From an uncultured Isosphaeraceae bacterium (lineage in GTDB: Bacteria; Planctomycetota; Phycisphaerae; Phycisphaerales; SM1A02): 36,006 nucleotides of DNA. The position numbers and the translations under genes are program-made. This document shows positions 2,804-32,691 of the stretch, in pieces. The stretch is taken from the NCBI GenBank assembly GCA_964596455.1, contig CAZQUA010000001.1, forward strand, positions 1-36,006. Direction: 5' to 3'. How positions within the stretch are numbered: position 1 is the first letter of the stretch; every line of letters starts with the position of its first letter. The notes beneath the pieces were generated by a model. That model searched no databases, was not told where the DNA came from, and was given only the letters and a program-made list of their open reading frames with translations.

Positions 2804-2825
2804 ACGCCTCCCGCGAGACCCGCCC

Positions 2826-5640: not shown

Positions 5641-5683
5641 ACGGCGGCGCGTCCCGCCTCCGCAATCCCTCCGGACCCCTTCC

Positions 5684-10046: not shown

Positions 10047-10061
10047 CCGCCGCCGTCCGAC

Positions 10062-11585
10062 TCACTCCGCCTCGAGCCACGCCGGATCGAAGCGGGTGCC
10101 TTCCGGCGCCGCGGGCGGCGGGCCCGCATCCTCCATCGAGGCGATCGGGACCGCGCAGGCATCCACGCTGAAGGCGCCCGCGGGACGGTGGTTCCCGCTG
10201 CGGCCGAGGCCGCCGAAGGGCAGGCGGCTGCTCGCCCCGGCGGTGCCGCAGTTGAGGTTCAGGCACCCCGCGCGGGTGCGGGCGAGGAACGCCTCGTGCT
10301 CGGCGGGGTCGCGGGTGAAGATCGACGCGGCGAGGCCGAACTCGGTCGCGTTGGCCTGCTCGATCGCGTCGTCGAGATCCTCCGCGACCGCCACCTGCAC
10401 GATCGGCGCGAAGACCTCGCCGTCGGTCTCGACCGTGAACCGCTCGACCTCGGCGACTCCCGGCGTCAGGAAGAAGCCCGGTCCGTCGAGCGGGCAGGCC
10501 GGCACCACGATGCGGGCGCCGCGGCCGCGGAGCTGCGACTGGAACTCGAGCGCTGCGAGGCGGGACGCCTCCGTCACGAGCGGCCCCATGAAGACCGGGG
10601 CCGGCGAGTCGAAGGGGCCGACGAGCACGCTCGCGGCGGCCTTGGCGAACGCGGGCAGGAACGATCCCGCCACGTCCCGGTGCACCACGATGCGGCGGGT
10701 GCAGGTGCAGCGCTGACCGGTCGTCGCGAAGGAGGCCCGCACGCACTCGACGACCGCGCGGCCGAGCTCCGCCGAGGGCATGACGATCGCCGGATTGCTG
10801 CCGCCCATCTCGAGGGCGATCAGGCGTCCCGGCCGGTCGAGGTTCGCCTCGAGGATCCGCCGTCCCACCGGCCAGCTGCCGGTGAAGAGGATCCCGTCGA
10901 GATCGGGATGGGCGACCAGCGCCGCGGCGATCCGCCCGTCGCCGTGCAACAGGTTCAGCACGCCCGCGGGAAGGCCCGCCTCCTCCCAGAGCCGGGCCAT
11001 GAACTGCCCCACCGCGGCGGCCTTCTCGCTCGGCTTGAAGACGACGGCGTTGCCGAGCAGCAGGGCCGGCACGATGTGCCCGTTGGGAAGATGCGCCGGG
11101 AAGTTGAAGGGGCCGAGCACCGCCATCACGCCGTGGGGGCGGAAGCGGCAGAGGCCGGTGCGTCCGGGGCCGGCCGGCACCGCGAAGCCCTCGACCCGCT
11201 GCCGCACCCGCTCCTCGAGGGTGATCTCGATCTTGTCGGCGACGAGCTTCGCCTCGAGGCGAGCCTCGGACAGGATCTTGCCCATCTCGAGGCCGATCAG
11301 GTTCGCAAGCTCCTCCTGCCGCCGCGACACCACCGCGGCGAACGCCCGCAGGTGCTCGATCCGCCGCTCCATCGGCAGCGCCGCCCACGCGGGCTGCGCC
11401 GCCCGCGCCGCCGCGACCGCGGCCCCGAGGTGGTCCTCCCGCGGCGAACCGCTCCAGACGAGTCGATCCGGCCGCGACGGGTCGAAGGTGCGGAGGCCGT
11501 CGCCGGGGATCGCCGCCCATCGGCCGCCGATCCAGTCCGCCGCGGGGCCCGCCACCGCCTCGGCGAGGGGAGCCGCCCCGCTCAC
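10062..11585 (-). CDS. astD: Succinylglutamate-semialdehyde dehydrogenase-like aldehyde dehydrogenase
   Basis: Aldehyde dehydrogenase core (FKPSEKAA…, LEMGGSNP, catalytic Cys context TTGQRCTCTRRIVV) resembles AstD. The GTG start at 11585 overlaps the astA-like stop (GTGA). Confidence 0.75.
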   Translation of the reverse strand: MSGAAPLAEAVAGPAADWIGGRWAAIPGDGLRTFDPSRPDRLVWSGSPREDHLGAAVAAARAAQPAWAALPMERRIEHLRAFAAVVSRRQEELANLIGLEMGKILSEARLEAKLVADKIEITLEERVRQRVEGFAVPAGPGRTGLCRFRPHGVMAVLGPFNFPAHLPNGHIVPALLLGNAVVFKPSEKAAAVGQFMARLWEEAGLPAGVLNLLHGDGRIAAALVAHPDLDGILFTGSWPVGRRILEANLDRPGRLIALEMGGSNPAIVMPSAELGRAVVECVRASFATTGQRCTCTRRIVVHRDVAGSFLPAFAKAAASVLVGPFDSPAPVFMGPLVTEASRLAALEFQSQLRGRGARIVVPACPLDGPGFFLTPGVAEVERFTVETDGEVFAPIVQVAVAEDLDDAIEQANATEFGLAASIFTRDPAEHEAFLARTRAGCLNLNCGTAGASSRLPFGGLGRSGNHRPAGAFSVDACAVPIASMEDAGPPPAAPEGTRFDPAWLEAE

Positions 11586-12661
11586 GCCGGCACCGCCCGC
11601 GCCTGCGGCGCGGCCCGGCGGGACTCGAGCAGCGTCGTCGGCGTGACGCCGATCGAGTCGCCCTCGGCGGCGCCGATCGCCTCCGCCTGCTCCGCGGACA
11701 GCCGCACCCGCTCGCCCTCGAGGGTGAAGCGTCCGCGGATCGCCCGGTAGCCGAGCTCGCCGAAGCAGCTCACGAAGCCGCTCTCCGCCGCGGGCGACTC
11801 GTCGATCGCGAGCGTCGCGGTGCGGGTCGCGGCGACGAGGGGAATGCGGTCCCGCTCCGCCCAGAGGTAGGGACCCCCGTCGAAGGGATCGACGTGGTCC
11901 TCGCTCGCGAAGCCCTGCGATTCGAGCATCCGCTTGGCGGGCCGGGTCTCCTCGCCCACCTTGCCGATCAGGTTGCGGGCCTCCGGCGGCAGCAGCGAGG
12001 CGTAGATCTCGCCGCGCGGGAAGAGGCTCGTGATGAACTCCTTCGAGTGCTGGCAGAAGAGATCCGCTTCCTTGTAGGAGAGGTTGATGAAGCGGCGGCC
12101 GAGGTACTCCCAGAGCAGGTTGTGGCTGTCGGGGGTCAGCGTGCCCATCATCTCCGCGATGACCTTCTCGGCGAAGAGCTCCCGGCGGATCCCGATGAAG
12201 TGCAGGCGGACCAGGCTCAGCAGCGTCCCGAGCCGCTCCGCGTGGCGGCGGTAGCCCGGCGCGAGGAAGAGGCCGCCGAGCTCGCTCGGGCCGCTCTCGT
12301 CGGTGCCGAACTCGAGGGTGAGGTGCACCTGCCCGGTCCCGAGGTCGCGGCTGAAGAGCGATCGCTTGCGGACGAGCAGGAAGGTGTGGGGATGCCCCGG
12401 CCAGGAGATGCAGCTGATCAGGCCGCTCGTTCCCACGACGTTCCCGGTCGAGGTGTCCTCGAGCACGAACATGAACTCCCGCTCCCGCGCCGCGAGCGGG
12501 TCGCCCGCGTCGTCGAACTCCCCGGCGAAGCTCTTGCGGCTGCGGGCGATCTTGCCGGAGAGGGCGTCGCGGTCCGCAGGCAGGTTGATGAAGTGCACCA
12601 TCCTCGCGAACTTCAGGAGGATCGGCAGATCGTCGGGCTGGGCGGGTCGGATGATGAACAT
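11582..12661 (-). CDS. astA: Arginine/ornithine N-succinyltransferase-like protein
   Basis: MFIIRPAQPDDLPILLKF…SGPSELGGLFLAPGYRR…LWEYLGRRFINLSYKEADL…DPFDGGP fits the AstA/AruF-AruG family pattern and length (~359 aa). Confidence 0.75.
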   Translation of the reverse strand: MFIIRPAQPDDLPILLKFARMVHFINLPADRDALSGKIARSRKSFAGEFDDAGDPLAAREREFMFVLEDTSTGNVVGTSGLISCISWPGHPHTFLLVRKRSLFSRDLGTGQVHLTLEFGTDESGPSELGGLFLAPGYRRHAERLGTLLSLVRLHFIGIRRELFAEKVIAEMMGTLTPDSHNLLWEYLGRRFINLSYKEADLFCQHSKEFITSLFPRGEIYASLLPPEARNLIGKVGEETRPAKRMLESQGFASEDHVDPFDGGPYLWAERDRIPLVAATRTATLAIDESPAAESGFVSCFGELGYRAIRGRFTLEGERVRLSAEQAEAIGAAEGDSIGVTPTTLLESRRAAPQARAVPA

Positions 12662-19935: not shown

Positions 19936-20199
19936 ATGCCCGAACCGACGCCGAGTCCGACTCCTGCCGATGCCGACCGCCACCGGGAGGTCGCAGCGGT
20001 GCTCGAGCGGATCCGGCCCGCCGTGCAGGCGGATGGGGGCGACATCGAGCTGGTGGGGGTGACCGCGACGGGCCGGGTCGAGGTGCGATTCCAAGGGGCC
20101 TGCGTGGGCTGCCCATCCTCGAGCGTCACGCTGCACCACTTCATCGAGCGGTTCCTGCTCGAGATCGACGGCATCCGCGAGGTCGTGGCGGTTCCCTGA
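19936..20199 (+). CDS. NifU C-terminal-domain (Nfu-type) Fe-S cluster scaffold/carrier protein
   Basis: VLERIRPAVQADGGDIELVGV…VEVRFQGACVGCPSSSVTL is the Nfu CxxC motif and surrounding consensus. ATG at 19936 inside track ORF 19609..20199. Confidence 0.8.
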   Translation: MPEPTPSPTPADADRHREVAAVLERIRPAVQADGGDIELVGVTATGRVEVRFQGACVGCPSSSVTLHHFIERFLLEIDGIREVVAVP

Positions 20200-20416
20200 G
20201 GTCCTCGGCAGGCGATCCGCCCCCCGGCGTGCCGGGCGGATGCGACCGCCGCTGCGGGCCATGGACATCCCCCGGGCAGTCCCGCTCGATCCGAGGAGGC
20301 GAGGAGGCGAGGCCGGGACCGGGCCATGGAAAGATCGCCTTCTCGGCAAGACAAGGTTGGGTCCGGGAACCGGCTGGGGTACTCTTGCAGGTCCGATTCG
20401 GCCCCGCGGGACCCGT

Positions 20417-20456
20417 TCCTGCGAGCGGTTCCGAGGTCAGGATCGCTCGCAGGAGG
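20417..20456 (+). promoter_or_regulatory. csrA leader hairpin with GGA in the loop and the Shine-Dalgarno sequence in the 3' arm
   Basis: CCTGCGAGCG (20418-20427) is the exact reverse complement of CGCTCGCAGG (20444-20453), extendable by a T17:A54 pair. The 16-nt loop GUUCCGAGGUCAGGAU carries CAGGAU. The 3' arm runs into AGGAGG (20451-20456), 8 nt before the csrA ATG. Confidence 0.45.
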
Positions 20457-20464
20457 TTCGAACG

Positions 20465-20695
20465 ATGCTCGTGATCACGCGGCGAGAGGGTGAGGAAGTC
20501 GTGATCGGGAATCCCGGAGCACCGCTCGGGATCATCCGCGTCGCCCAGATCAAGGGAGATCGGGTCCGCTTGGCGCTGGAGTTCCCCCGAGAGGTCGAGG
20601 TGCATCGCCGCGAGGTCGCCGAGCAGATCGCGGCGACCGATGCCGATGTGCCCGCACCGATCGTGGGATCGATCCGACCGGCCGCCGAGGCCTGA
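20465..20695 (+). CDS. csrA: Carbon storage regulator (RNA-binding translational regulator)
   Basis: MLVITRREGEEVVIGNPGAPLGIIRVAQIKGDRVRLALEFPREVEVHRREV matches the CsrA/RsmA consensus (MLVLTRK-GE-I-IG…V-V--I-G--VR-GI-AP--V-I-R-E). A strong AGGAGG RBS lies upstream. Confidence 0.9.
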   Translation: MLVITRREGEEVVIGNPGAPLGIIRVAQIKGDRVRLALEFPREVEVHRREVAEQIAATDADVPAPIVGSIRPAAEA

Positions 20696-20752
20696 ACCGG
20701 CCGCCGAGGCCTGAACCGGCCGCCGAGGCCTGAACCGGTTCCTGAACCTGAA
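20677..20752 (+). repeat. Tandem repeat: three perfect 19-bp units ACCGGCCGCCGAGGCCTGA plus two decayed units
   Basis: Units at 20677-20695, 20696-20714 and 20715-20733 are identical. They are followed by ACCGGTTCCTGA and ACCTGAA. The first unit encodes the last CsrA codons and the TGA stop (20693-20695). Confidence 0.9.
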
Positions 20753-21179
20753 GCAGGTCCGGAACGAGATCGGTCCCGACCCGGCCGCGGCCCCGCGTCG
20801 CCGCTTGCTGCGGATCGTCCGGGATCACCCGAGTCCAGCGGATCCGGGGGCAATCGCCTCCAGGGCCGTTAGGCGCTGAAGGCGGTGGTTCTCTGCGGGG
20901 CAAGCCCGCCGCCGTGGGTCGAGGCATTCCATGCCGCCGGCACCCACCCGATCGGTCGTCCCTGACCAGACTGCCGCAGACGCGGGATGTCGGAGCGGCG
21001 TTCGCCGTCCGATTCGGGCAGAGCGGGCATTCCTGCGAATGCCGCTCCATGCGGACGCCGGATCGATCCGTGATCCGGCCGCCCTCCCGACACCAGCCTC
21101 CTGCCGGTGATCCCGCGGCGTCGAGAACGGCCGTCCGTGGCCGCCATCGCCGCCCGCTGCGTTCGACGGGCGAAGCCCG

Positions 21180-21653
21180 TCATCCTCCGCTCCCCTGCTT
21201 GGAGTCCGAAATCGCCTGCCTCGCCCGCCGCCAGAACTCCGGCCGGGTCGGTGCCTCCCCCGCCTGGACCTGCAGCCACTGCTCGGGCCGCATCAGCTCG
21301 AGGTGATCGCGGACCCCGAGAATCGTCACCGCGTCCCGCAGTTCGAACTCCCGCAGCAGGCGGTCGGGAATCCGCACGCGGCCCGCCGCATCGAGGGGCA
21401 GCCGCGCCGCCCTCGAGAAGAGTTGCCGCTCGAAGACCATCAGCTCCTCGTCGCCCACGAGCGAGCCGCCGAGTTGCGAGGCCAGCCGCTCGAAGGTCCG
21501 CTCCGGCCAGAGCCAGAGCATGCCGTTGGGCCCCGGTGCCACGATCAGTGCGTCCCCGTGGGTCGCCGGGTCGATGACACCCCGGATCTCGCTCGGGATG
21601 GCGAGTCGCTGTTTCGTGTCGAGCGAGTGCTGGAATTCGCCTAGAAGGAGCAC
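21180..21653 (-). CDS. mraZ: Transcriptional regulator MraZ
   Basis: (GTG)LLLGEFQHSLDTKQRLAIPSEIR and the second SpoVT/AbrB-like repeat LDAAGRVRIPDRLLREF, at the typical ~155 aa length. The start is GTG at 21653. Confidence 0.85.
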   Translation of the reverse strand: MLLLGEFQHSLDTKQRLAIPSEIRGVIDPATHGDALIVAPGPNGMLWLWPERTFERLASQLGGSLVGDEELMVFERQLFSRAARLPLDAAGRVRIPDRLLREFELRDAVTILGVRDHLELMRPEQWLQVQAGEAPTRPEFWRRARQAISDSKQGSGG

Positions 21654-22483: not shown

Positions 22484-23584
22484 ATGACGAGCGTCCCTGC
22501 CGCGGCGGCGAAGGCCCCCAATCCCTCGAACCTGCACGGTCTCGACTACCGCGCCGAGGCGGACCGGTTCGGTCCGCCGGCGGCCCCGATCATCGACATC
22601 CACCTGCATCTGACCGGCGGCCGCGCCGTGGAGATCTTCGCCGAGGCCGCCCGCCTCCATGGCGTGCACCGCTTCTTCTCGATGACCCCGCTGCCGATGG
22701 CGGAAGAGGTCCGGGATCGCCTCGGCGACGCGGTCGAGTTCATCGCGGTGCCGAACTGGCTCGCCCCGGATCGTCTCCACGAGCATGGGCGAGGCTTCCT
22801 CGACACCATCGAGCGGTTCCATGCCCTCGGCAGCCGCATGGTGAAGTTCTGGGCGGCGCCCCGCGGCCTCGACGTCGGGCGGGAGAGCGGCGTGCCGGAC
22901 CTTCTCCGCCTCGACGCCCCCGCCCGCCGCGACGCCATGCGGCTCGCGGAGAGCCTCGGCATGCGCTTCATGGTGCACGTGGCCGACCCGGACACCTGGT
23001 TCGCCACCCGCTACGCGGACCGCCGCCTCTACGGCGCGAAGGCCGACCACTACGAGCCGCTGCGTCGCCTGCTCGACGAGCATCCGGTGCCCTGGATCGC
23101 CGCGCACTTCGGGGGCTCGCCGGAGGACCTCGACCGCCTCGACACCCTGCTCGCGGCGCATCCGAACCTGCATCTCGACACCAGCGCCGCCAAGTGGATG
23201 GTGCGGGAGCTGTCGCGGCATCCGCGGCCGCGGCTGCTGGCGTTCCTCGAGCGTTGGCGGGGACGGATCCTCTTCGGCTCCGACATCGTCACCCACGACG
23301 ACCATCTGCTCGCCCGCGACGGCAAGACCGAGATGGCCGCGAAGGCGAGCGATCCCGACTCCGCGTTCGATCTGTACGCGAGCCGCTACTGGGCCTATCG
23401 CACCATGCTCGAACGCGACCGCGAGGGCCTCTCGCCGATCGCGGACCCCGATCTCGCCGCGGTCGATCCGGCGCGGCACGGCCCGCTCGACTCGCCGCCG
23501 CTGCGGGGCTTCTCGCTCCCGGCACCGCTGCTGCAGGAGCTCTACGCGGGCGCCGCGGAGCGGCTCTTCCCGCCGCGGACCTGA
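22484..23584 (+). CDS. Metal-dependent amidohydrolase (TIM-barrel, Amidohydro_2-like)
   Basis: N-terminal metal-binding motif IIDIHLHL, later MVHVADP, AAHFGG and FGSDIV, typical of the amidohydrolase superfamily. ATG at 22484 inside track ORF 21986..23584. Confidence 0.65.
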   Translation: MTSVPAAAAKAPNPSNLHGLDYRAEADRFGPPAAPIIDIHLHLTGGRAVEIFAEAARLHGVHRFFSMTPLPMAEEVRDRLGDAVEFIAVPNWLAPDRLHEHGRGFLDTIERFHALGSRMVKFWAAPRGLDVGRESGVPDLLRLDAPARRDAMRLAESLGMRFMVHVADPDTWFATRYADRRLYGAKADHYEPLRRLLDEHPVPWIAAHFGGSPEDLDRLDTLLAAHPNLHLDTSAAKWMVRELSRHPRPRLLAFLERWRGRILFGSDIVTHDDHLLARDGKTEMAAKASDPDSAFDLYASRYWAYRTMLERDREGLSPIADPDLAAVDPARHGPLDSPPLRGFSLPAPLLQELYAGAAERLFPPRT

Positions 23585-24690
23585 ATCGACCACGGGCCGC
23601 CGAGGGCGAGGCCCCACCGCTGCGGCGATGCCGCCGTCGCATCGCCTCGCCCCGCGGCGGCGGCGGCGGCCCGGGCCTGCGGCGAGGACCACTCCCGGAA
23701 GATCCGCTGCGCCGCCGCGAGCGGCGGCGACACCGGCAGCAGCAGCGCGGCGTTCGCGACGGTCCGCGGCCACGGCGGCTGGTCGAACGCGGCCACGCAG
23801 ACGCCGGATCGCGCGAGCAGTCCCGGCAGCAGCACCGCATCGGGGTCGAGCGGCGGCCGTCCGCCGCTCGGGTCGGCGCCTCCCGCCACGAGGGCGAGGT
23901 CCAGCGCCGCGGCGGTGCCGAGAAGATCGTGCCGCAGCGGCGCGGTCCGGACCCGATCGGCGAGGCCGAACCGCTCCAGCTGCGAGGCGAGGCCCTCCGC
24001 ATGCAGGTCGAGCGGATCGAGCACCACCGAGATGGGCATGCCCGCGAGCATCGCCAGCGCGAGGACGTTGAGGCCGTCATGCCGCGCCGACCGCACCGGA
24101 TCGACGGCGCCGCCCGGCACGAAGAGGCCGACCGCGACCGCGTCGGCGTCGAGGCCGATCTCGCAGCGGATCCGCGGGCGGCTCCGCCTCGCCGCGGCGA
24201 TCGCCGCCTCGACCGCCTCGCCCCCGGGCGAGGGCAGGGGCCGCAGCGGCTCGAGAGCGAAGCGGTGCCGAGGCGACAGCGACTCCAGCCACGCCGACCA
24301 TGCCGCAGCCTCGATCGGGCCGCGGCCGCGGAGGCGACGCTCGCGGACCCCGCTCGGGAACGCATCGAGCACCACCAGGCGGCGGCCCGGTCCGCGGGTC
24401 TCCGCGATCGCGAGGCCGGCGGCGTTGGACCAGGCGATCACCGCCGCCACCTCGATCTGCCGGGCGGCGGCCGCGATCGCCCGCGCCACGCCGCGTCGGT
24501 CCCCCGGCGGCACGCGGGCCACGCTCGGCAGTCCCGAGCCGACCCCCTCGCCGATGGCGATCTCGAGGTGCCGCAGTCCCGGCTGCGACGACGCCGCGTC
24601 GCGGACGAGCAGCCGCCGCAGCGGCGCCGACGCCGCATCCGTGTCGAGGCAGTGGAGCACCGCCGCATCGCCGTGGCCAGCGGGGCTCAT
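23542..24690 (-). CDS. Hypothetical protein with a GT-B (GT4-like) glycosyltransferase-like C-terminal half, possibly degenerate
   Basis: The segment RIRCEIGLDADAVAVGLFVPGG…GLNVLALAMLAGMPISVVLDP…LASQLERFGLADRVRT…LLGTAAALDLALV…LLPGLLARSGVCVAAF follows the order of GT4 C-domain elements, but I see no clear E-x7-E motif. The ATG at 24690 overlaps the upstream stop (ATGA). Confidence 0.4.
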   Translation of the reverse strand: MSPAGHGDAAVLHCLDTDAASAPLRRLLVRDAASSQPGLRHLEIAIGEGVGSGLPSVARVPPGDRRGVARAIAAAARQIEVAAVIAWSNAAGLAIAETRGPGRRLVVLDAFPSGVRERRLRGRGPIEAAAWSAWLESLSPRHRFALEPLRPLPSPGGEAVEAAIAAARRSRPRIRCEIGLDADAVAVGLFVPGGAVDPVRSARHDGLNVLALAMLAGMPISVVLDPLDLHAEGLASQLERFGLADRVRTAPLRHDLLGTAAALDLALVAGGADPSGGRPPLDPDAVLLPGLLARSGVCVAAFDQPPWPRTVANAALLLPVSPPLAAAQRIFREWSSPQARAAAAAAGRGDATAASPQRWGLALGGPWSIQVRGGKSRSAAPA

Positions 24691-25328
24691 CGGTCGCGGA
24701 GGTTCTCGCCGAGATCGACCCGCTCGTGCTTGTAGAAGAGCTTCGCGACGTCGACGGCGATGCGATCGACGAGGCCCTCCTCGAGGACCCGTCGCGAGGT
24801 CGGGGTCGCGTAGAGGTCGGTGCTCACCTCCCGCATCTGCGAGGCGACGAGGCGGCCCTCCGGGGGGTCGGGCGGATAGGTCCGCACGAGGCCATCCATG
24901 TCGATCACCCGCACGAAGACCTCCGCGTAGGGCCGAGGCCGCCCATCGGTGCCGACGAGGGAGAAGTCCGCCACCTGCAGATACACCACCTGGGCGGCGC
25001 CCACGGCCTTGGCGACCGCTTCGAGCGAGGCCGGCTCGGACTTGCGGTCGCTCGACCTCATGAACGCCACCGCGTCCCGCGAACTGATGACCTTGGGCAC
25101 GAGCTTCTCGCGAAGCAGGGCCTTGCCGACCTCCTCGCCGAGGCCCACGCGAAGCGGCAGGCGAGGCATCAGCGAGCGGGGGTCGTCGACGATCACCACG
25201 GTGTCGACCTTCGCGAGCTCGTGCTCCGCGTCGATCATGCCCGGCCCCTCCACGGCGTAGGCGATCGGCGCCACGATGTTGCATCCCGGCAGCAGCGCCG
25301 CCGCGGCCGCAAGGACCGCCCCCAGCAC
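24687..25328 (-). CDS. Hypothetical lipoprotein (paralog B of a tandem pair)
   Basis: Lipobox …AVLGAVLAAAAALLPGC. Start assigned to GTG at 25328, with low certainty. The longer track ORF to 25700 overlaps the upstream gene and is R/G-rich. Shares architecture and a C-terminal motif (RIAVDVAKLFYKHE) with the upstream lipoprotein. Confidence 0.5.
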   Translation of the reverse strand: MLGAVLAAAAALLPGCNIVAPIAYAVEGPGMIDAEHELAKVDTVVIVDDPRSLMPRLPLRVGLGEEVGKALLREKLVPKVISSRDAVAFMRSSDRKSEPASLEAVAKAVGAAQVVYLQVADFSLVGTDGRPRPYAEVFVRVIDMDGLVRTYPPDPPEGRLVASQMREVSTDLYATPTSRRVLEEGLVDRIAVDVAKLFYKHERVDLGENLRDR

Positions 25329-25345
25329 CGCCGCGAGCCGCGGCG

Positions 25346-26011
25346 CTAGGAGGGGTACTTGTCCTCGATGTGGTCGTAGAAGAGCCACGCGATCCTCTGG
25401 ATGAACTTGGAGAGAAGGCCCGTCTCGATCTGCCGGGCGTTGGCGGAGTCCCGGGCGACGCCTTCCATGTCGGGGAACTTCTCGACGACCGAGAAGGTCT
25501 CCGCGAACTCGTCGTGCTCGAAGCCGCCCCGCTCGATCACCCCGATGGTGGCCCCGGCGACGCCGTCCCACAGCCAGCTGTTGCCCGGCGGATGCAGGCG
25601 GTACTCGTGGATGTCCACCACCACCACCCGCTCGACGCCCAACTCCTCGGCGACCTCGCCGTAGGGCAGCGCCGTCCAGTTGGGAGTCTGCCACTGCCAC
25701 TGCAGGACCACGCGGGGATCGAGCACCTTCGCGCCCTCGACCTCCGCGGCGATCCTTCCGGAGAGGTTCGCGGCCACGTTGGGCGCGACGGTGGGATGCT
25801 CGTACAGCAGCGAGAGGTCCGACTGCACCACCACCGCGACGCTGCGGTTCCGAAGGCCGTCGTACTCGGCGAGCACCTCGATCTTCTTGGCCCGCTCGAG
25901 CTGCCCGCTCACCGCGCCGACGATGCCCATCACCTGGCAGCCCCCGGCGGCGAACGCCCCGAGCATCGCCCCGGCGAACGCGGCGGCCGCCATGGCCCTC
26001 CGGAGCCTCAT
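25346..26011 (-). CDS. Hypothetical lipoprotein (paralog A of a tandem pair)
   Basis: MRLRRAMAAAAFAGAMLGAFAAGGC is a canonical lipoprotein signal. The ATG at 26011 overlaps the DUF2752 stop (ATGA). C-terminal motif RIAWLFYDHIEDKY. Confidence 0.65.
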   Translation of the reverse strand: MRLRRAMAAAAFAGAMLGAFAAGGCQVMGIVGAVSGQLERAKKIEVLAEYDGLRNRSVAVVVQSDLSLLYEHPTVAPNVAANLSGRIAAEVEGAKVLDPRVVLQWQWQTPNWTALPYGEVAEELGVERVVVVDIHEYRLHPPGNSWLWDGVAGATIGVIERGGFEHDEFAETFSVVEKFPDMEGVARDSANARQIETGLLSKFIQRIAWLFYDHIEDKYPS

Positions 26012-26496
26012 GGCATCGCCCCCGACTCGAGGCGGATCGCGGCGACCTTGTAGACCCACGCCAACGCCAGCAGGACCACCACCGCCCACACCGTCCGGCC
26101 GCCGAGGAAGGGGCCGAGCAGCTGGTAGGACCGCGAGGCGGTCGCCGCGGTGAAGGCCGCCACCACGACCGCCGCCGCCGCCGCGATCGCCAGCACCGCC
26201 CCCATCGGCTGCGCCTGGAACGAGGCGATGAAGTCGCCCCGCACCGCGAGGGAGAACGCGGTGGTCATGCCGCAACTCGGGCAGGGAAGGTTCATGCCGC
26301 TCATCCACCCGCAGGCGGGCAGGCCGAGCTGCTGGTGGGTTCCCACGCCCGCCGTGTCCGGCTCGAGCCGCCAGGCCACCGCGAGCGGCGTCGCCGCCGC
26401 CGCCGCCACCGCCGCCGCCAGCAGTCGCTCCCGCCCCGAGAGCCGAGGGTCGTCGGCCCGGTGCGGGGTCCCGGGAGTCGAAGCGGCGGAGGCCAT
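26008..26496 (-). CDS. DUF2752-like small membrane protein
   Basis: GLPACGWMSGMNLPCPSCGMTTAFSLAVRGDFIASFQAQPMG matches the DUF2752 signature (C-P-x-C-G-x-T-R/T…G), followed by two hydrophobic helices. Confidence 0.65.
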   Translation of the reverse strand: MASAASTPGTPHRADDPRLSGRERLLAAAVAAAAATPLAVAWRLEPDTAGVGTHQQLGLPACGWMSGMNLPCPSCGMTTAFSLAVRGDFIASFQAQPMGAVLAIAAAAAVVVAAFTAATASRSYQLLGPFLGGRTVWAVVVLLALAWVYKVAAIRLESGAMP

Positions 26497-26594
26497 GGAT
26501 CCGGGAGGGTACTTCCGCCCCGGCGCTGCGGCAACGATTCGCCGCGGAGATCGCCTTGCGGCGGACGCCTCCGCAGCGACGATACTCCGTGCCT

Positions 26595-26629
26595 CCGCCC
26601 TCCGCCCGCCGCCCGCCGCCCGCCGCCCG
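26595..26629 (+). repeat. Heptanucleotide microsatellite: four perfect CCGCCCG units plus one variant
   Basis: CCGCCCT (26595-26601) is followed by four perfect CCGCCCG units (26602-26629). The array ends 4 nt before the dipeptidase ATG. Confidence 0.8.
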
Positions 26630-26633
26630 CACG

Positions 26634-27689
26634 ATGCCCCTCTCCAGTCCCGCCGACGACTCGCCCGCCGGACGCAGCGGCGATCCGCCCTGGCTCGACG
26701 CCCACCTCGACCTGGCCTATCTCGCGGCGGAGGGCCGCGATCTCGACCGCTGCCAGACGCCCGAATCGGGCGCCTGCGTCAGTTGGCCGGATCTCGCCGA
26801 GGCGCCGGTCTCGATTTGCCTCGGCACGATCTTCGTCGATCCGATCGATCCCTCCTCGCCGGCCGGAGGCGTGGACGAAGCGGAGAAGGCGGGGCTGCGG
26901 CAGATCGAGTGGTACGAGTCGCAGGAGCGCCGCGGCCGGATCCGGCTCGTGCGGACCGCCGAGGACCTCGACGATCGTCCTGAGGACGCCGACGCCCGGG
27001 TGCGGGTGGTGCTGCTCATGGAGGGCGCCGAGCCGATCCGGGACCCCGCCGCCGCAGCGTGGTGGTTCGCGGCCGGCGTCCGTGCGGTCGGCCTGACCTG
27101 GGCGAGAGGCTCCCGCTACGCCGGCGGCAACGCCTCCGGCGGCGGCCTCACCTCCGCGGGCCGCGAGCTGGTCGCCGCCCTCGACGAGCTCGGCATCCTC
27201 CACGACGCCTCGCATCTCTCCGACGAGGCGTTCGCGGATCTTCTCGACGCCACGCCTCGCCGGATCGTCGCGACGCACTCGAACCTGCGGCGGCTGGTGC
27301 GGCCCGAGGCGCGGCATCTCTCCGACGAGCAGGTCGCGGCGATCGCATCCCGCGACGGCGCCATCGGCCTCAACCTCTACGGACGCTTCCTCTGCGAAGG
27401 GCGAAGGGCGCGTCTCGACGACTGCCTCGGGCATCTCGAGGCGATCGCGGCGATCGCGGGCCGCCATCGGGTCGGCCTCGGTTCGGATCTCGACGGCGGC
27501 TTCACCACGCGGGACCTGCCGGAGGGACTCGAGCATCCCCGCCGCCTTCGTCGCCTCGACGAAGGCCTCGCCGCGGCGGGCTGGAGCGGCCCGGAGCGGG
27601 AGGGCTTCCGGATCGGGAACTGGCGGCGGGTGCTTCGCGACGCGCTGCCGACGCCTACGCCGGCTCGCTCCGCCGCGCCGCGGGATTGA
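26634..27689 (+). CDS. M19-family membrane dipeptidase (renal dipeptidase-like)
   Basis: N-terminal LDAHLDLA (HxD metal motif), GVRAVGLTWA, ILHDASHLSD, VATHSN and GLGSDLDGGF are M19 hallmarks. ATG at 26634. Confidence 0.85.
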   Translation: MPLSSPADDSPAGRSGDPPWLDAHLDLAYLAAEGRDLDRCQTPESGACVSWPDLAEAPVSICLGTIFVDPIDPSSPAGGVDEAEKAGLRQIEWYESQERRGRIRLVRTAEDLDDRPEDADARVRVVLLMEGAEPIRDPAAAAWWFAAGVRAVGLTWARGSRYAGGNASGGGLTSAGRELVAALDELGILHDASHLSDEAFADLLDATPRRIVATHSNLRRLVRPEARHLSDEQVAAIASRDGAIGLNLYGRFLCEGRRARLDDCLGHLEAIAAIAGRHRVGLGSDLDGGFTTRDLPEGLEHPRRLRRLDEGLAAAGWSGPEREGFRIGNWRRVLRDALPTPTPARSAAPRD

Positions 27690-29148
27690 GCGGCAGGCGA
27701 AGCCAGCCCGCCCCGCCGGCCATCTCCACGCAGAGCAGCAGATGCACCCGCAGGCGGCTCGTGGCGAGCGACGCCGCGGCCTCGGGGCGATCGGTGACGA
27801 GATCGATCGCGAGCTCGTGGTCCTCGATGCGGTCGATGCCGGGGCAAGCGAGGCGAAGCAGGTCCGCGTGGTCCCGCACCCATCCCGCCACCGCCTGCAC
27901 CTCCTCGAGCGAGGCGAGCGGCGCGAGCAGATGCAGGCCGCCCGCCGCATCCACCGCCAGCTCCACCGCGGGGTGGTAGGGGCACTGCACCGGCAGCGGG
28001 CGGAGATGGGGGAACCGAACCGCGAGCGGCCGCGGGAAGGCCGCGCCCCGCACCAGATGCAGATCGCCGTTCGCCCGCGACTCGCCGCCGAAGGGATCGC
28101 TCGGACGCGGCGGCAGCTGCCCCGGCTCCGCCGGCGACGGCGCGGATGCCGCGGGCACGACGGGAGCCTCCGCGTTCGAGGCCGAGTAGGAGGACCACGC
28201 GGCGGCGCGGCCCCCGACGAGGCGGCGGATCGCCTCGAGGTCGCCCCGCACCGGAGGCAGCGGAGGCAGCGGCGCCGCCGCGGGAGCCTCGCCCCGGGGC
28301 TCGCCCTCGGAGGCCTGCGGCTTCGACGCGAACGGCCACGCGGACTGGATCGCCTCGGGCAGGGGCTCGATCGCGGGGGGATCGCTCGGCATCGCCTCCG
28401 ACGACGCGGGGGCGGGGCGACGCCGCAGGAGATCCTCGAGCAGGCGAGGGATGTCCTGGAAGGTGAGCGCCCGCGGCGCCGGCAGCGTGAGGCGGTAGCT
28501 CGACTGCACCGGCTCCATGCGCTGCATCGCCATCGCCAGCGGCAGCTCCATGCCCAGGAACGCCGAGGCGGTGCGGTTGAGCTTCGCCATGGCCTCGCCG
28601 ACCTTCGCCTCCGACGCGCCGAGGACCGCCACCTGCATCCGCGGCAGCGGCAGGCCCTCGACCATGGCGTCCTCCGCGATCGCCTTGAGCATCCGATAGG
28701 CGCCGACCACCGCCGCCTCGTCGGCGCCGGTCAGCACCAGCAGCGACCTCGTGCCGCTCCGCAGCACCTCCGAGGGAGCCGCGGACGCCTCCGGCACGAC
28801 GATCCATCGCCGCGCCAGCCGCACCGCGGCCTCGAGGGCCTGCTCGAGATCGAGCGCTTCGGCGATGCTGCTCCCAAGGCCCGCCCGCAGCACCTCCACC
28901 TGCACCTGCCCGGCGACGAAGCGGACCACGCCCACCGCCCCCTCGTCCCGGGCGAGACGATCGGCGAGTTGGGTGATCCAGAGTCCGGCCGAGACCGGCA
29001 GATGCCCCACCATCGCCACCCGCACCGCCTCGCCGGCGGCCGCGTCGGTGGCGCGAGGCGAGGCGGGCGACGCCGACTCCTCCGCCTCGAACTCCGGCGA
29101 GAGGAAGAGGTCGGCCAGATCGTCGAAGGGATCCCGCGGTCGATCCAT
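27655..29148 (-). CDS. Hypothetical protein with an N-terminal region resembling a P-loop-less ParA/MinD fold; putative partner of the upstream ParA-CBM48 ATPase
   Basis: The start lies 4 nt after the ParA-like stop. Residues ~40-215 keep the beta-alpha rhythm of ParA/MinD (VRVAMVGHLPVSAGLWITQLADRLA…RRWIVVPEAS…LLVLTGADEAAVVGAYRMLKAI…MQVAVLGASEAKVGEAMAKLNRTASAFLGMEL). KGGxGKT is replaced by GHLPVSAG and the Walker B Asp is absent. A Pro/Ala-rich linker and a distinct C-terminal domain follow. Confidence 0.6.
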   Translation of the reverse strand: MDRPRDPFDDLADLFLSPEFEAEESASPASPRATDAAAGEAVRVAMVGHLPVSAGLWITQLADRLARDEGAVGVVRFVAGQVQVEVLRAGLGSSIAEALDLEQALEAAVRLARRWIVVPEASAAPSEVLRSGTRSLLVLTGADEAAVVGAYRMLKAIAEDAMVEGLPLPRMQVAVLGASEAKVGEAMAKLNRTASAFLGMELPLAMAMQRMEPVQSSYRLTLPAPRALTFQDIPRLLEDLLRRRPAPASSEAMPSDPPAIEPLPEAIQSAWPFASKPQASEGEPRGEAPAAAPLPPLPPVRGDLEAIRRLVGGRAAAWSSYSASNAEAPVVPAASAPSPAEPGQLPPRPSDPFGGESRANGDLHLVRGAAFPRPLAVRFPHLRPLPVQCPYHPAVELAVDAAGGLHLLAPLASLEEVQAVAGWVRDHADLLRLACPGIDRIEDHELAIDLVTDRPEAAASLATSRLRVHLLLCVEMAGGAGWLRLPLNPAARRSEPA

Positions 29149-29152
29149 GGCG

Positions 29153-30547
29153 TCAGCGTCCCGGCACGATCAGCAGGTTGGTGGTGCCGAGCGGATCCAC
29201 GGATCCTTCGGCGGCGACGGCCTCGGTGCCCCCGACGGCCCGGCGTTCGATCCGCTCGAGATTGAACGGATCGGGCGATGCCACGCCGTCGATGAGCAGC
29301 TGGTACTCGTAGCGACCCGGCGGCAGCGGCACGGTGAGCTCGAAGAGATCCCCCGCCTCCCGACGCATCTGGAAGACCTGCCACCCCCCGCCGAAGGCGT
29401 GCCCGAAGTCGCCGCGGATGGCCATCTCCGCCGCGCCCGCGGCAGGCTGGGCGAAGCGGACTCCCTCGGGACCGAAGCTGACGCCCATGGGCCGTTCGGT
29501 CCGCGATCGGACGGCGGTGGCGACGCTCTCGGAGTCGCCGGAGCCCGCCTGCGGCCATGCCTCCGCCCCGCTGCCGGCGGCGTCGCCGCGGATCGCCGCG
29601 AGGGGATCCTCGGGAGCCCCGCCCCGCTTCATCCGCCGCACGAGCTCCGCGGCGCGGTCGCCATCGCGGCCGCCGCCGCCCTCCGCCGGCTCGGCCGGGC
29701 CGCGGTCGCCGCGGTCGCCGAGCATGGTCGAGACCGCGCGGCGATCCACCTCGACCGAGGGCGGCTCGGGGCGGGGGCCCGATGCGAGCATCCACTCCGC
29801 GAGGGCCTCGAAGTCGCGGACCGCCTCGCTCTGCGGCGCGAACTCCCGCACCGGCTGCCCGAGGCCCGCGGCTTCCCGCAGCACCTCGTGCTCATGGATG
29901 CGGTGGGGAATCAGGGCGTCGGCGAACCGCTCCTCGAGCGCCGCCAGCACGTCCCTCGCGACCTTGCGGTCGGGATCGTGCAGCGTCGCGAGCAGGCGAA
30001 CGGGGATCACCCGCCCGAGACGCTCGGACACCTTGCGGATCGTCGCCCACTGCCGCTCGGCGCCTCGGAGCGAGAAGAAGCCGGTCTCGACCGGCACGAG
30101 GGCCTCGTCGGCGGCCCGCAGGGCATTGAAGGTGAGCAGGCCGATCGTGGGCGGACAGTCCACGAGGCAGAACTCGAAGCGGCTGTCGAGCCGCCGCAGC
30201 AGCTTGGCGAGGCGGCGGTCCCGATCCGGGAGCGACGCGGCCGGCCCGTTGGGGGCTTCCAGCGCCGCCAATCCCACCCCCGATGGGGCGAGGTAGAGGT
30301 TCCTTGCCACCTCCCACAGGATCGACGCCGGGTCCGGTCCCCGCTCGAGATCCTGCAGCAGCGCGTCGAGCACGGATCGCTCGATCCGCTCCTCGGGCAC
30401 GCCAAGGCCCGCGGCGCAGTGCCCCTGCGGATCCATGTCCACCAGCAGCGTGCGGTGGCCCCGCAGGGCCAGCTCCGCAGCGAGGTTGATGGCGGTGGTG
30501 GTCTTGCCGCATCCCCCCTTCTGGTTCACGACGGCGATCGTTCGCAT
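29153..30547 (-). CDS. ParA/MinD-family deviant Walker-A ATPase fused to a C-terminal CBM48 / AMPK-beta glycogen-binding-like domain
   Basis: N-terminus MRTIAVVNQKGGCGKTTTAINLAAELALRGHRTLLVDMDPQGH…FCLVDCPP is a canonical ParA/Soj. After a ~90 aa Gly/Arg/Asp-rich linker, the C-terminus VRFAQPAAGAAEMAIRGDFGHAFGGGWQVFQMRREAGDLFELTVPLPPGRYEYQLLIDGVASPDPFN follows the CBM48 consensus (V-F…V-V-GSFN-W…M…F-L-L-PG-Y-YKF-VDG-W-DP-N). Confidence 0.85.
   Translation of the reverse strand: MRTIAVVNQKGGCGKTTTAINLAAELALRGHRTLLVDMDPQGHCAAGLGVPEERIERSVLDALLQDLERGPDPASILWEVARNLYLAPSGVGLAALEAPNGPAASLPDRDRRLAKLLRRLDSRFEFCLVDCPPTIGLLTFNALRAADEALVPVETGFFSLRGAERQWATIRKVSERLGRVIPVRLLATLHDPDRKVARDVLAALEERFADALIPHRIHEHEVLREAAGLGQPVREFAPQSEAVRDFEALAEWMLASGPRPEPPSVEVDRRAVSTMLGDRGDRGPAEPAEGGGGRDGDRAAELVRRMKRGGAPEDPLAAIRGDAAGSGAEAWPQAGSGDSESVATAVRSRTERPMGVSFGPEGVRFAQPAAGAAEMAIRGDFGHAFGGGWQVFQMRREAGDLFELTVPLPPGRYEYQLLIDGVASPDPFNLERIERRAVGGTEAVAAEGSVDPLGTTNLLIVPGR
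29156..29488 (-). other. CBM48/AMPK1_CBM-like beta-sandwich domain portion of the ParA-like protein
   Basis: This is the last 111 residues, from MGVSFGPEGVRF to the end. The PGRYEYQLLIDG…DPFN core motif was recognised by eye. Confidence 0.65.
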
Positions 30548-30682: not shown

Positions 30683-31843
30683 TCAGCACCGGATCCCGAT
30701 CGCCCGCCATCCCGCCGCCACCACCGCCTCGGGAGGATCGGCGAGCACCTCGGGGCGGCCCCATCCCCGCAGCAGCACCAGGGCGAGGCGGCCGCGGGAC
30801 CGCTTCTTGTCGAGCCGCATCAGGGACCGCAGCCGCGACCCGTCCGCCGCCTCGCCGGGCCACGCCGTGGGAAGGCCCAGCCGATCGAGCATCGCCGCGA
30901 CTCGCGGCGGCGCCGCCGGATCGAGCCAGCCCGCCTCGACCGACGCCGCGGCCGCCGCGACGAGGCCGAGCGACACCGCCTCGCCATGCCGCCAGGGGAC
31001 CTGCGGCAGCGACTCGATCGCGTGGGCGTAGGTGTGCCCGAGGTTGAGGTGCCGCCGCGAGCCCCGCTCGAGGGGATCCTCGGCGACGATCCTCGACTTG
31101 ACCGCGATGCTCCTCGCAAGCAGGCGATCGAGGCAGCCGTCGTCGCCCTCCGCGGGCGTGCCCGCAAGCGCCGCGAGGGACCCCGCATGGGCCTCGAGGA
31201 ACGCCAGCGATTCCTCCCCGTCGAGCATGGCGTGCTTCACGCACTCGGCGAGGCCCGCCCGGAACTCCCGCGGCGGCAGCGTCGCCAGCGACCTCGGATC
31301 GCCCAGGACCAGGCGGGCCGGATGGAAGCTGCCCACGAGATTGCGGCCGAGCGATCCGTCGGCGAGGCGATGGTTGATCGCGGTCTTGCCGCCGATCGAG
31401 GCGTCCACCATGGCCATCAGGGTCGTGGGCACGAGCACCAGCGGCACCCCCCGAAGCAGCACCGAGGCGGCGAAGGCCGCGAGATCGCCGACGCAGCCGC
31501 CGCCGACGGCGACCAGCGGCGTGTCGCGGCCGATCCCCCACTCGATCGCCTCGGCGACGATCCGATCGACCGACGCCTGCACCTTGTTCGATTCGCCGGC
31601 GGGTACGTCGATCCGCCGCCACCCGAGGCCCGCCTCCCCCAGCGACCGCTCGACCTCCGCGATGGCCGCCTCCGCCCCGGGATCGCACACGAGCAGCAGG
31701 CGTCCCTCCGCCGCGAGTCCGGCCGCGGCGAGGCGATCGGCGATCGCGGAAAGTTCGCCGCGGCCGCAGCGGATCTCGCAGGTCGCCGCCTCCGGCGACG
31801 GCCACTCGAGGCGGCGATGCAGCGTCTCGGGCCGGGCGTTCAT
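30683..31843 (-). CDS. aroB: 3-dehydroquinate synthase
   Basis: GESNK, VAVGGGCVGDLAAFAAS, VPTTLMAMVDASIGGKTAIN, LNLGHTYAHAIE and HGEAVSLG. The ATG at 31843 overlaps the upstream stop (ATGA). Confidence 0.9.
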   Translation of the reverse strand: MNARPETLHRRLEWPSPEAATCEIRCGRGELSAIADRLAAAGLAAEGRLLLVCDPGAEAAIAEVERSLGEAGLGWRRIDVPAGESNKVQASVDRIVAEAIEWGIGRDTPLVAVGGGCVGDLAAFAASVLLRGVPLVLVPTTLMAMVDASIGGKTAINHRLADGSLGRNLVGSFHPARLVLGDPRSLATLPPREFRAGLAECVKHAMLDGEESLAFLEAHAGSLAALAGTPAEGDDGCLDRLLARSIAVKSRIVAEDPLERGSRRHLNLGHTYAHAIESLPQVPWRHGEAVSLGLVAAAAASVEAGWLDPAAPPRVAAMLDRLGLPTAWPGEAADGSRLRSLMRLDKKRSRGRLALVLLRGWGRPEVLADPPEAVVAAGWRAIGIRC

Positions 31844-32691
31844 GGACGATCGCCCGCCGCCGACGGCGACGCCTCCTGCCGCAGCACCGCCAGCGCCTCC
31901 GCGGGATCCGTCGGCAGGTCGCCGCGGGGCGGCGGCGTCGCTTCGTCCGATGGCGTGGATCGGGGCGACGCTCCCCCGCTCCGCCCGCCGCGGCCGAGCC
32001 GCCGCAGCCAGACCACCAGGGCCAGCATTCCCATCACCACCGCCGGCAGCAGCCACTCCGGCGAGGCCGCCATCGCGGGATCCTGCGGGGGCATCGCCAC
32101 GCCCACGAACGTGTGCCACCGCCGCGCCACGCCATCGCGAGACCGCTCCTCGGTGACCCGAAGGAAGCGGCCGACCACCTCGACTTCGCGGGGCCCGCGT
32201 CCGGCGGCGGACGGCGGCGGATCGACCACCCAGCACTGCACCGTCGGAGGCGATGGATCTTCCCCGGGAACCGCCTCGAGACGAACGAACCACTCGGCGA
32301 GGCGGGGCGGCGACTCGTCGCCGCGGATCGTCGGCCACTCGAAGGCGGTCTCCTGCTCGAGGCGGCCGCGAAGGCGCACGAGGCTGCCCCGATGGGGATC
32401 CGGTTCGAGCAGCCAGCCGCCCCAGTCGGGACGCCGCACCGTCGGAGCCGCATCGATGGCCGCCCGCAGCGAATCGGGATCGGTCGGCCACGCCCTCGCG
32501 CCCTCGAGCAGGCGATGCCACGCCTCGTCGCGGCGGTCGAGTCCGTCGCTCGCCGCCGCCAAGGCCGCGAGCGCCTCCGAGTCGAGCGGGGGGATCGCCG
32601 CCGCCTGCAGCCGCCCCGCCGCCGGGGAGCCGGCGAGGCCGCAACCGAGGAGCAACGCGGCAAGGACGCGATGGAGCGGATCCCGTCCCAT
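31840..32691 (-). CDS. Hypothetical envelope protein (lipobox-like N-terminus, C-terminal transmembrane helix)
   Basis: MGRDPLHRVLAALLLGCGLAG signal/lipobox and C-terminal WLLPAVVMGMLALVVWLRR. An alternative ATG lies at 32745. I recognised no family. Confidence 0.5.
   Translation of the reverse strand: MGRDPLHRVLAALLLGCGLAGSPAAGRLQAAAIPPLDSEALAALAAASDGLDRRDEAWHRLLEGARAWPTDPDSLRAAIDAAPTVRRPDWGGWLLEPDPHRGSLVRLRGRLEQETAFEWPTIRGDESPPRLAEWFVRLEAVPGEDPSPPTVQCWVVDPPPSAAGRGPREVEVVGRFLRVTEERSRDGVARRWHTFVGVAMPPQDPAMAASPEWLLPAVVMGMLALVVWLRRLGRGGRSGGASPRSTPSDEATPPPRGDLPTDPAEALAVLRQEASPSAAGDRP

Follow-up and report, generated by a model that had tools for sequence, protein, structure and literature searches.

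A 36,006-nucleotide stretch of DNA from an uncultured Isosphaeraceae bacterium (positions 1 to 36,006 of contig CAZQUA010000001.1, assembly GCA_964596455.1; this whole stretch is referred to here as the window) encodes on its reverse strand, at 29153..30547, a protein in which a ParA/Soj-type ATPase is fused to a C-terminal domain with the CBM48/AMPK-beta fold. We confirmed that this is a genuine fusion within a single open reading frame (ORF), for which the source databases offer only the names "AAA family ATPase" and "chromosome partitioning protein." The gene would belong to a module of two genes, found in conserved form throughout the class Phycisphaerae, and would provide its ATPase subunit. 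According to our best reading, to which we assign a probability of roughly 45%, this module is switched by ATP, its typical members are tethered to glycogen via their carbohydrate-binding module (CBM), the partner protein encoded directly downstream acts as a regulator or adaptor, and the copy in the window has a CBM that has become weaker or has taken on another use. Both the ATPase superfamily and the CBM family are well known; their combination, the loss of the DNA-binding patch of Soj proteins from the ATPase, and the partner family are undescribed.

Architecture and distribution of the fusion protein

The protein and its parts are located in the window as follows.

29153..30547, minus strand: whole ORF, ParA-type ATPase, linker, and CBM48-fold domain (464 amino acids plus stop, ATG start)
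29783..30547, minus strand: ATPase domain, residues 1 to 255, with a Soj-like deviant Walker A motif (matches to Pfam AAA_31 and to ParA/Soj structures in the PDB)
30497..30520, minus strand: deviant Walker A motif KGGCGKTT, residues 10 to 17, with the family-typical Cys13 (read from the translation)
29882..29971, minus strand: residues 193 to 222, covering the basic DNA-binding positions of Soj, with D193, E205, E219, and V222 in place of Arg/Lys (alignment with Thermus thermophilus Soj [TtSoj])
29486..29782, minus strand: linker, residues 256 to 354, variable in length and sequence (alignment of relatives)
29624..29659, minus strand: conserved basic helix motif DRAAELVRRMKR, residues 297 to 308 (23-sequence alignment)
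29156..29485, minus strand: beta-sandwich with the CBM48/AMPK-beta fold, residues 355 to 464 (family profile, AlphaFold2 [AF2] model, and Foldseek)
29186..29245, minus strand: lineage-specific insert of ~20 residues in the CBM, at about residues 435 to 454, RRAVGGTEAVAAEGSVDPLG (predicted local distance difference test [pLDDT] score of 56 to 58)

The ORF is one uninterrupted frame with uniform coding statistics, and its G+C contents at the third and second codon positions (GC3 of 0.90 and GC2 of 0.53) follow the pattern of coding DNA, in a window with an overall G+C content of 74%. The motifs quoted in a first-pass annotation of this DNA are all present in the translation, namely, KGGCGKTT at residues 10 to 17, DMDPQGH at residues 37 to 43, LVDCPP at residues 128 to 133, and IRGDF...LFELTVPLPPGRYEYQLLIDG...DPFN at residues 377 to 429. 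A protein with 100% identity (P0001) is present in public contigs of metagenome-assembled genomes (MAGs), in three independent records. Furthermore, the C-terminal domain is found in all 120 of the best relatives, and among 87 loci from independent assemblies, the CBM is fused to the ATPase in 78, with 2 loci being cut by contig ends.

In a scan of a genome collection with one genome per species, in which the family Walker A pattern NQKGG[CS]GK was used, at least 574 genomes proved to encode a relative, and nearly all of these come from the Phycisphaerae. The best 80 of these at least 574 genomes are nearly without exception labeled Phycisphaerales, Tepidisphaerales, Sedimentisphaerales, or Anaerohalosphaeraceae, the exceptions being a few MAGs under other planctomycete names. 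The first-pass annotation had suggested a survey of the ParA-CBM48 architecture and had raised the concern that the fusion might be an artifact. The architecture proved to be class-wide in the Phycisphaerae, and since hundreds of genomes share the fusion, an assembly or frameshift error that joined two separate genes is ruled out as its origin, the chance of such an error being practically nil.

A Soj-derived ATPase without the usual DNA-binding residues

Residues 1 to 255 match Pfam AAA_31 with an E value of 7.8e-41, in addition to the CbiA and BcsQ models. Matches to ParA/Soj structures in the PDB, covering residues 2 to 255, have E values ranging from ~1e-36 to 1e-29 and include 8ray (4.6e-36, residues 2 to 251), TtSoj (1wcv, 1.1e-30), and H. 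pylori Soj (6iub, 2.2e-29). In an alignment of 23 diverse relatives, the signature lysine K10, the residues G11, G12, and G14, the Walker A residues K15 and T16, the adjoining T17, the Walker A' residues D37 and D39, and the Walker B residue D130 are invariant. The first-pass description of the N terminus as a ParA/Soj protein with a deviant Walker A motif is thus borne out, and, judged from these alignments, the domain is an orphan, Soj-derived ATPase whose catalytic and dimerization motifs appear intact. Because these motifs are intact, the ATPase would be expected to alternate between an ATP-bound sandwich dimer and a monomer, like other ParA/MinD proteins. The protein starts with MRTIAVVNQKGG and has no N-terminal helix-turn-helix (HTH) extension, and no parB, gid, dnaA, or other origin marker was found among the ORFs that were scanned in the 36-kb window, in agreement with the earlier annotation on each of these points.

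The family also has invariant Cys and His residues of its own in the ATPase domain, in the motifs KGG-C13-GKT, DPQG-H43-C44-AAGLGVP, and C127-LVD-C131-PP (window positions 30497 to 30520, 30407 to 30438, and 30146 to 30169, respectively). Aligned Soj proteins have V in place of C13, N-A in place of H43/C44, and I/L in place of C127, while C131 is shared with 8ray (IDCPP) and is replaced by Ala in TtSoj.

Two other identities were considered for the ATPase, of which BcsQ was rejected and MinD is unlikely. BcsQ models span the whole domain (Pfam CBP_BcsQ, E value of 6.1e-15; TIGR03371, E value of 1.8e-30), but the TIGR03371 score of 106.2 bits compares with a cutoff of 157.85, and neither the window nor the flanks were found to contain bcs genes. 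Scores against MinD models are far under the respective cutoffs, and no min genes were seen. Where a MinD protein has its C-terminal amphipathic membrane-targeting helix, the protein described here has the CBM, and its internal helix DRAAELVRRMK is basic and only weakly hydrophobic, although it comes to lie close to the C terminus in variants without a CBM.

Nonspecific DNA binding by Soj depends on a basic patch formed by TtSoj residues R182, R194, R208, and R211, which correspond to R189, K201, R215, and R218 of BsSoj, as described in a study of the HpSoj-DNA complex (PMC6393308). Mutagenesis has shown that BsSoj R189 and R218 mediate nucleoid binding (PMC6393308). We aligned 120 relatives with TtSoj and 8ray and found that the R182 position is occupied by D, E, Q, S, and other residues, that of R211 by V, A, E, S, P, and others, and that at each of these two positions the eight commonest residues, accounting for 114 of the 120 relatives, never include Arg or Lys. 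At the R208 position, the charge is reversed, with Glu or Asp in 111/120 relatives. Only the R194 position is mostly basic (R/K in 78/120). In the protein encoded in the window, all four positions are nonbasic (D193, E205, E219, and V222), and the ParA loop IP(K/R)(S/N), which is conserved elsewhere, reads IHEHE. With three of the four basic positions replaced across the family, the canonical Soj DNA-binding surface is lost, and a simple model of a ParA acting on the nucleoid is therefore undercut.

The C-terminal domain and its sugar site

When the C-terminal domains of aligned relatives were analyzed, 43 of 43 matched PF16561 (best E value, 7.9e-15) and 35 of 43 matched PF02922 (CBM_48). In the PDB, the best match to a profile of the family was the CBM of AMPK beta (E value of 6.7e-13); CBM48 modules from pullulanase, GlgB, SEX4, and LSF1 came next. 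The AF2 model of residues 345 to 464 has a pLDDT score of 85.7, and the top 50 Foldseek matches to the domain model are all CBM48-containing chains (probability of 1.00; TMq of 0.50 to 0.65), with the CBM48 of feruloyl esterase, TreZ, pullulanases, AMPK beta, SEX4, GlgX, and GlgB at the top. Superposition on the CBM of AMPK beta gives a root mean square deviation of 2.3 to 2.8 Å over about 100 columns. The domain therefore has a true CBM48 fold, and the homology is secure at the family level. The CBM48 assignment made in the first-pass annotation holds in this sense, with the family passing the profile check and the fold being confirmed, while the window sequence taken alone matches below the threshold.

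Mutation of W100, K126, W133, or N150 of rat AMPK beta1 abolishes glycogen binding (PMC4032982). To assess these positions, we aligned 119 C-terminal domains with the AMPK beta2 CBM sequence; the domains were drawn from the 120 best database matches, so that the following counts are skewed toward relatives of the window protein.

W100 position: Trp in 104/119 relatives
K126 position: Arg in 94/119 relatives
W133 position: Trp in 74/119 relatives
N150 position: Asn in 77/119 relatives

The complete pattern W-R-W-x-N is present in 59/119 relatives. Since about half of these relatives keep the residues, which is hard to explain otherwise, it is plausible that typical members bind alpha-glucan. 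A typical, and probably ancestral, member would then be switched by ATP and anchored to alpha-glucan (glycogen) in the cytoplasm, and dimerization would provide two-handed glycogen binding of higher avidity. As a description of the family, a glycogen-tethered ParA-type switch is plausible.

The copy in the window differs from this pattern. W133 is replaced by A423 and K126 is replaced by Q416, while L146 (L453) and N150 (N457) are retained. Three residues are inserted in the GDFNxW loop (GDFGHAFGGGW), because of which W389, located after the insertion, is an ambiguous equivalent of W100. The ~20-residue insert at about residues 435 to 454 is absent from most relatives. Given the loss of W133 and K126 and the remodeled W100 loop, the window copy probably binds glycogen weakly or not at all. 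The remodeled sugar site is common to the lineage of the window protein (P0001 to P0016). It is of note that the window CBM shares 85 to 86% identity with those of P0002 to P0004, compared to 32 to 64% for the adjoining linker, which indicates that the CBM of this lineage is under purifying selection and not decaying. In this lineage, the CBM has most likely come to bind a different ligand or to make contact with a protein.

A conserved helix in the linker and relatives without a CBM

The linker had been annotated as disordered. It is indeed variable, with segment 311 to 354 showing 18 to 64% identity among P0002 to P0016, compared to 68 to 94% for the ATPase, but it encloses a short element that is conserved in the family. 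The core of this helix, DRAAELVRRMK (residues 297 to 307), has the family form sRAAELvrRvr, and R298, A300, E301, and R305 are invariant in 23 sequences. The Tepidisphaerales version reads SRPAELVQRAK, and in Sedimentisphaerales-like loci, the helix reads (S)ATADELLQ, with the arginines gone.

At seven complete loci (L013, L021, L026, L032, L034, L043, and L048), with ORFs near locus positions 4200 to 7000, the ATPase ends 8 to 29 residues past the conserved helix (for example, ...GRAAELAHRLRLSG...), which is thus kept near the C terminus, and no CBM is encoded downstream in any frame. These loci retain the ATPase, the helix, and the downstream partner gene, and the glycan module is for this reason to be regarded as accessory and not as part of the core.

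The partner protein

The partner gene and its features are located as follows.

27655..29148, minus strand: partner gene, 497 amino acids, in the same orientation as the ATPase gene and starting 4 nucleotides past its stop codon (ORF and synteny)
29101..29133, minus strand: acidic-hydrophobic N-terminal motif DPFDDLADLFL, residues 6 to 16, predicted to be helical
28414..29031, minus strand: N-terminal domain, residues 40 to 245, with a predicted MinD/FlhG/ParA-like (SIMIBI P-loop) fold (AF2 and Foldseek)
27679..28041, minus strand: alpha/beta C-terminal domain, residues 370 to 490, with the motif CPYxPxVELAVDxxGxLHL

Members of the partner family share a layout consisting of the N-terminal peptide (DPFDxLADLFL), a domain with the motifs GHLPV and LTGADEAAVVxxYRxxK, a proline-rich variable linker, and the C-terminal domain. 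The partner gene was present at every long locus first examined and is found at most Phycisphaerales and Tepidisphaerales loci; overall, it lies downstream of the ATPase gene in 66/87 loci. An exhaustive HMMER search delimited a family of 1,608 clusters at 50% identity (978 at an E value of ≤1e-30), with all proteins being 390 to 670 amino acids long; this search is the source of the family size, and a word-index profile search added one new protein (P0161). In the deeper-branching set of loci (L053, L056, L057, L061, L064, L066, L068, L070, L072 to L075, L081, L083, L086, and L087), which are Sedimentisphaerales-like, the ParA-CBM48 fusion is kept, and at L053, a divergent partner is recognizable by eye.

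Sequence and profile searches of Pfam, NCBIfam, and the PDB gave no match to the partner. The AF2 model is confident in both domains, and the pLDDT score of the N-terminal domain is ≥85 and mostly >90, with a dip to 66 at residues 91 to 100. Foldseek matched this domain to FlhG (4rz3 and 4rz2; E values of 7.6e-4 to 1.4e-3, probability of 0.99 to 1.0) and further to MeaB, ArsA, ParA (3ea0), FleN, MipZ, and MinD. The Walker A position reads GHLPVSAG and has no lysine. We propose that the N-terminal domain is a pseudo-ATPase, with only moderate confidence because hhalign shows no relation at the sequence level. For the C-terminal domain, neither profile searches nor a Foldseek search with the whole model, which was dominated by the N-terminal domain, returned a fold or family match.

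Activation of the ATPase by a partner protein is the rule in the ParA/MinD family (PMC7993993, PMC11407121). By analogy with ParB, MinE, McdB, and PomX, the partner would most likely be the cognate regulator or adaptor, either stimulating ATP turnover or linking the ATPase to a second binding site. The first-pass annotation envisaged a ParA that positions its cargo directly through a cargo domain of its own; since a dedicated partner gene lies immediately downstream, the ATPase is not adaptorless, and this part of the proposal needs to be changed.

The partner peptide DPFDDLADLFL is similar to the helix that closes the ATPase domain, DFEALAEWML (residues 245 to 254, window positions 29786 to 29815), the family consensus of which is DFEALADWL. 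The 16-residue hhalign alignment of the two is not significant, and the resemblance may be mimicry or chance.

Weighing of the possible functions

Several observations weigh against the glycogen-tethered switch that we prefer. No glycogen metabolism genes were found, either in the window or among the annotated neighbors at five loci. The window C-terminal domain alone scores 20.6 to 20.7 bits against AMPK1_CBM, with an E value of about 5e-4, and thus stays under the gathering score of 26.8; its sugar site lacks W133 and K126. Given that the ATPase is CBM-less at the seven loci described above and that ~38% of relatives lack W133, the module cannot have glycan binding as its essential function. 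As to the second gene, unrelated or opposite-strand genes replace the adjacent partner in about 15 of the deeper-branching loci, the P-loop-like fold of the partner comes from one AF2 model with a borderline Foldseek E value of 7.6e-4, and hhalign found no homology between its N-terminal domain and the ParA domain (probability of 0.6%).

In an alternative model, the CBM fold is a protein-binding or regulatory module and the pair positions or regulates a nonglycan target, such as an envelope or division complex. The CBM of AMPK beta, for instance, also docks on the kinase. In the family described here, degradation of the sugar site has occurred more than once, and several lineages have lost the CBM altogether but still have the ATPase, the helix, and the partner; the degenerate CBM of the window lineage is still conserved; and the syntenic neighbors, a DUF2752 protein and two lipobox proteins, are of the envelope type. 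In addition, all Planctomycetes lack ftsZ, and the Phycisphaerae divide by binary fission through an unknown mechanism (PMC10632474, PMC5147048). However, half of the relatives keep the exact contact residues for alpha-glucan, and no division or envelope gene is consistently cotranscribed with the pair, the neighbors being housekeeping genes such as aroB. We therefore regard this explanation as possible but on the unlikely side. A model that builds on the first-pass annotation, in which the ATPase forms gradients on the nucleoid, as ParA and McdA do, and segregates glycogen granules by a diffusion ratchet through its own CBM, draws on the closeness of the ATPase to chromosomal ParA/Soj proteins and on a CBM48 fold that is real, with glycogen contact residues in about half of the relatives; ParA-type ATPases are also established as positioning protein-based cargos over the nucleoid (PMC11407121). 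It is at odds with a Soj DNA-binding patch that is mostly nonbasic in the family and wholly so in the window protein, with the absence of W133 and K126 from the window copy, and with CBM-less variants that retain the rest of the module. Moreover, this model requires the cargo to stimulate hydrolysis, and the sole candidate stimulator, the partner, has no carbohydrate-binding domain. It is thus quite unlikely for the family, and nucleoid-based segregation of glycogen granules by the window gene, with both the DNA patch and W133/K126 lost, is not supported. Less probable still, and in our view a poor fit, is a chromosomal partition ParA with a ParB encoded elsewhere and a C-terminal domain that is a dispensable decoration. 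The best matches of the ATPase are indeed chromosomal ParA/Soj proteins, in line with one of its database labels, but its score against NCBIfam NF041546 (ParA_partition) is 113.4 bits, compared to a cutoff of 180, the flanks of 87 loci yielded no ParB domain, the DNA-binding patch is lost, and the dedicated partner downstream is not a ParB. A search for ParB box motifs in the ORFs of the 87 loci gave one match, at L032, in an ORF without a Pfam family.

Comparison with known systems and implications

With ParA/Soj of ParABS systems, the ATPase shares the fold and motifs of the deviant Walker A type and the small size without an N-terminal HTH. It differs in having no adjacent parB, in the replacement of three of the four basic DNA-binding residues, in the family signatures KGGCGKT and DPQxHCAxGLGVP, in its 210-residue C-terminal extension (helix and CBM48), and in its partner, which is an unrelated protein of 500 amino acids. 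An organizational parallel is provided by McdA/McdB of carboxysomes and by PomZ/PomXY, in which an orphan ParA-type ATPase is likewise encoded beside a lineage-specific partner of no known family. The partners on both sides have disordered stretches as well as a conserved peptide at the N terminus, and both would be devoted to a target other than DNA. McdA and PomZ, however, use the nucleoid as their matrix, whereas the ATPases described here lack the usual DNA-binding residues and carry a ligand-binding module themselves. The known activating peptides are basic (PomX K13 and R15 [PMC7993993]), in contrast to the acidic-hydrophobic peptide of the partner.

AMPK beta, SEX4, and LSF have a CBM of the same fold, whose residues W100, K/R126, W133, and N150 occur in about half of the relatives, and in them, too, a cytoplasmic CBM48 is attached, by fusion or by binding, to a regulator that depends on nucleotides; in AMPK, the CBM acts as a glycogen sensor (PMC2642990). 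Here, the attached enzyme is a ParA-type ATPase and not a kinase or phosphatase, and the window copy has lost two contact residues and gained two insertions.

BcsQ is another ParA/MinD family ATPase tied to a glucan system, and its models match across the ATPase domain, but with scores below the cutoff (106 versus 158 bits) and no bcs genes nearby. BcsQ itself has no CBM, and its partners are BcsR, BcsE, and BcsA. Finally, FlhG, MinD, and MipZ resemble the partner in the predicted fold of its residues 40 to 245, while the partner has neither the Walker A lysine nor detectable sequence homology to them and has an extra C-terminal domain.

ParA/MinD ATPases are the main means by which bacteria place large intracellular structures. 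To our knowledge, the characterized members all act on DNA or membrane and reach their cargo by a separate adaptor. Reviews and surveys list DNA, the divisome, carboxysomes and other microcompartments, flagella, chemoreceptor arrays, and conjugation machinery as cargos, and no glycogen or carbohydrate. Our full-text literature searches yielded no paper linking ParA-type ATPases to CBM48, the AMPK CBM, or glycogen granules, so that the view that a ParA-CBM48 system had not been described before stands. A conserved ATPase that lacks DNA-binding residues and carries a carbohydrate module would mean that these ATPases can use a matrix or cargo of a new kind. It is conceivable, although we consider it doubtful, that the FtsZ-less Phycisphaerae possess a class-wide ParA-type system in which the ATPase grips glycogen, either as the cargo or as the surface replacing DNA or membrane, and is regulated by a pseudo-ATPase partner. 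If this were true, glycogen granules would be the first cargo of a ParA/MinD ATPase to consist of polysaccharide, or else glycogen would be a new working surface, and the state of carbon storage would be coupled to subcellular organization or division.

The module would offer a testable handle on the organization of bacterial storage polysaccharide. It is also a concrete entry into the FtsZ-independent cell biology of the Phycisphaerae, which is essentially unexplored, and into a partner family that is unannotated. The value of the copy in the window is that its degenerate sugar site points to the ATPase, the helix, and the partner as the indispensable parts.

Genomic context

The window consists of housekeeping DNA. 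The aroB gene lies directly upstream of the ATPase gene, and other genes include dapF, infC, purT, mraZ, csrA, nifU, and those for M20 and M48 peptidases. Upstream of aroB, a 283-amino-acid protein without a Pfam family is encoded at 31840 to 32691 (minus strand), with a lipobox-like N terminus (LLLGCG) and a hydrophobic C-terminal segment; its position is conserved in L001, L002, and L004 to L007. Past the partner gene, a syntenic cluster at 23542 to 26496 (minus strand) comprises a gene for DUF2752 (26008 to 26496), genes for two proteins of ~215 amino acids with lipobox-like sequences (AAGGC and LLPGC), and, closing the cluster, a gene for a 382-amino-acid protein without a Pfam family, whose position is occupied elsewhere by proteins with weak matches to GT4/Glycos_transf_1. 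Between this cluster and the partner gene, a convergent ORF for an M19 dipeptidase at 26556 to 27689 (plus strand), whose limits were set mechanically, runs 35 nucleotides into the 3' end of the partner gene. At some related loci, the dipeptidase is missing and DUF2752 directly follows the partner.

Farther away, an arginine cluster at 2348 to 12661 includes argR and genes for a semialdehyde dehydrogenase of the N-acetyl-gamma-glutamyl-phosphate reductase type (argC), ornithine carbamoyltransferase (argF), argininosuccinate synthase (argG), and ArgJ, with an aldehyde dehydrogenase and an arginine N-succinyltransferase (AstA) encoded on the opposite strand. The mraZ gene (21180 to 21653, minus strand) is isolated and is followed by csrA and a gene for a NifU domain protein on the other strand, with no dcw cluster in this region (20000 to 21653). 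The window comes from an assembly close to but distinct from that of locus L001 (GCA_046766315.1, JBJNWD010001441.1): the encoded ATPase is identical, whereas indels are seen in the flanks, with the partner called with 497 versus 493 amino acids and a 13-nucleotide offset by DUF2752.

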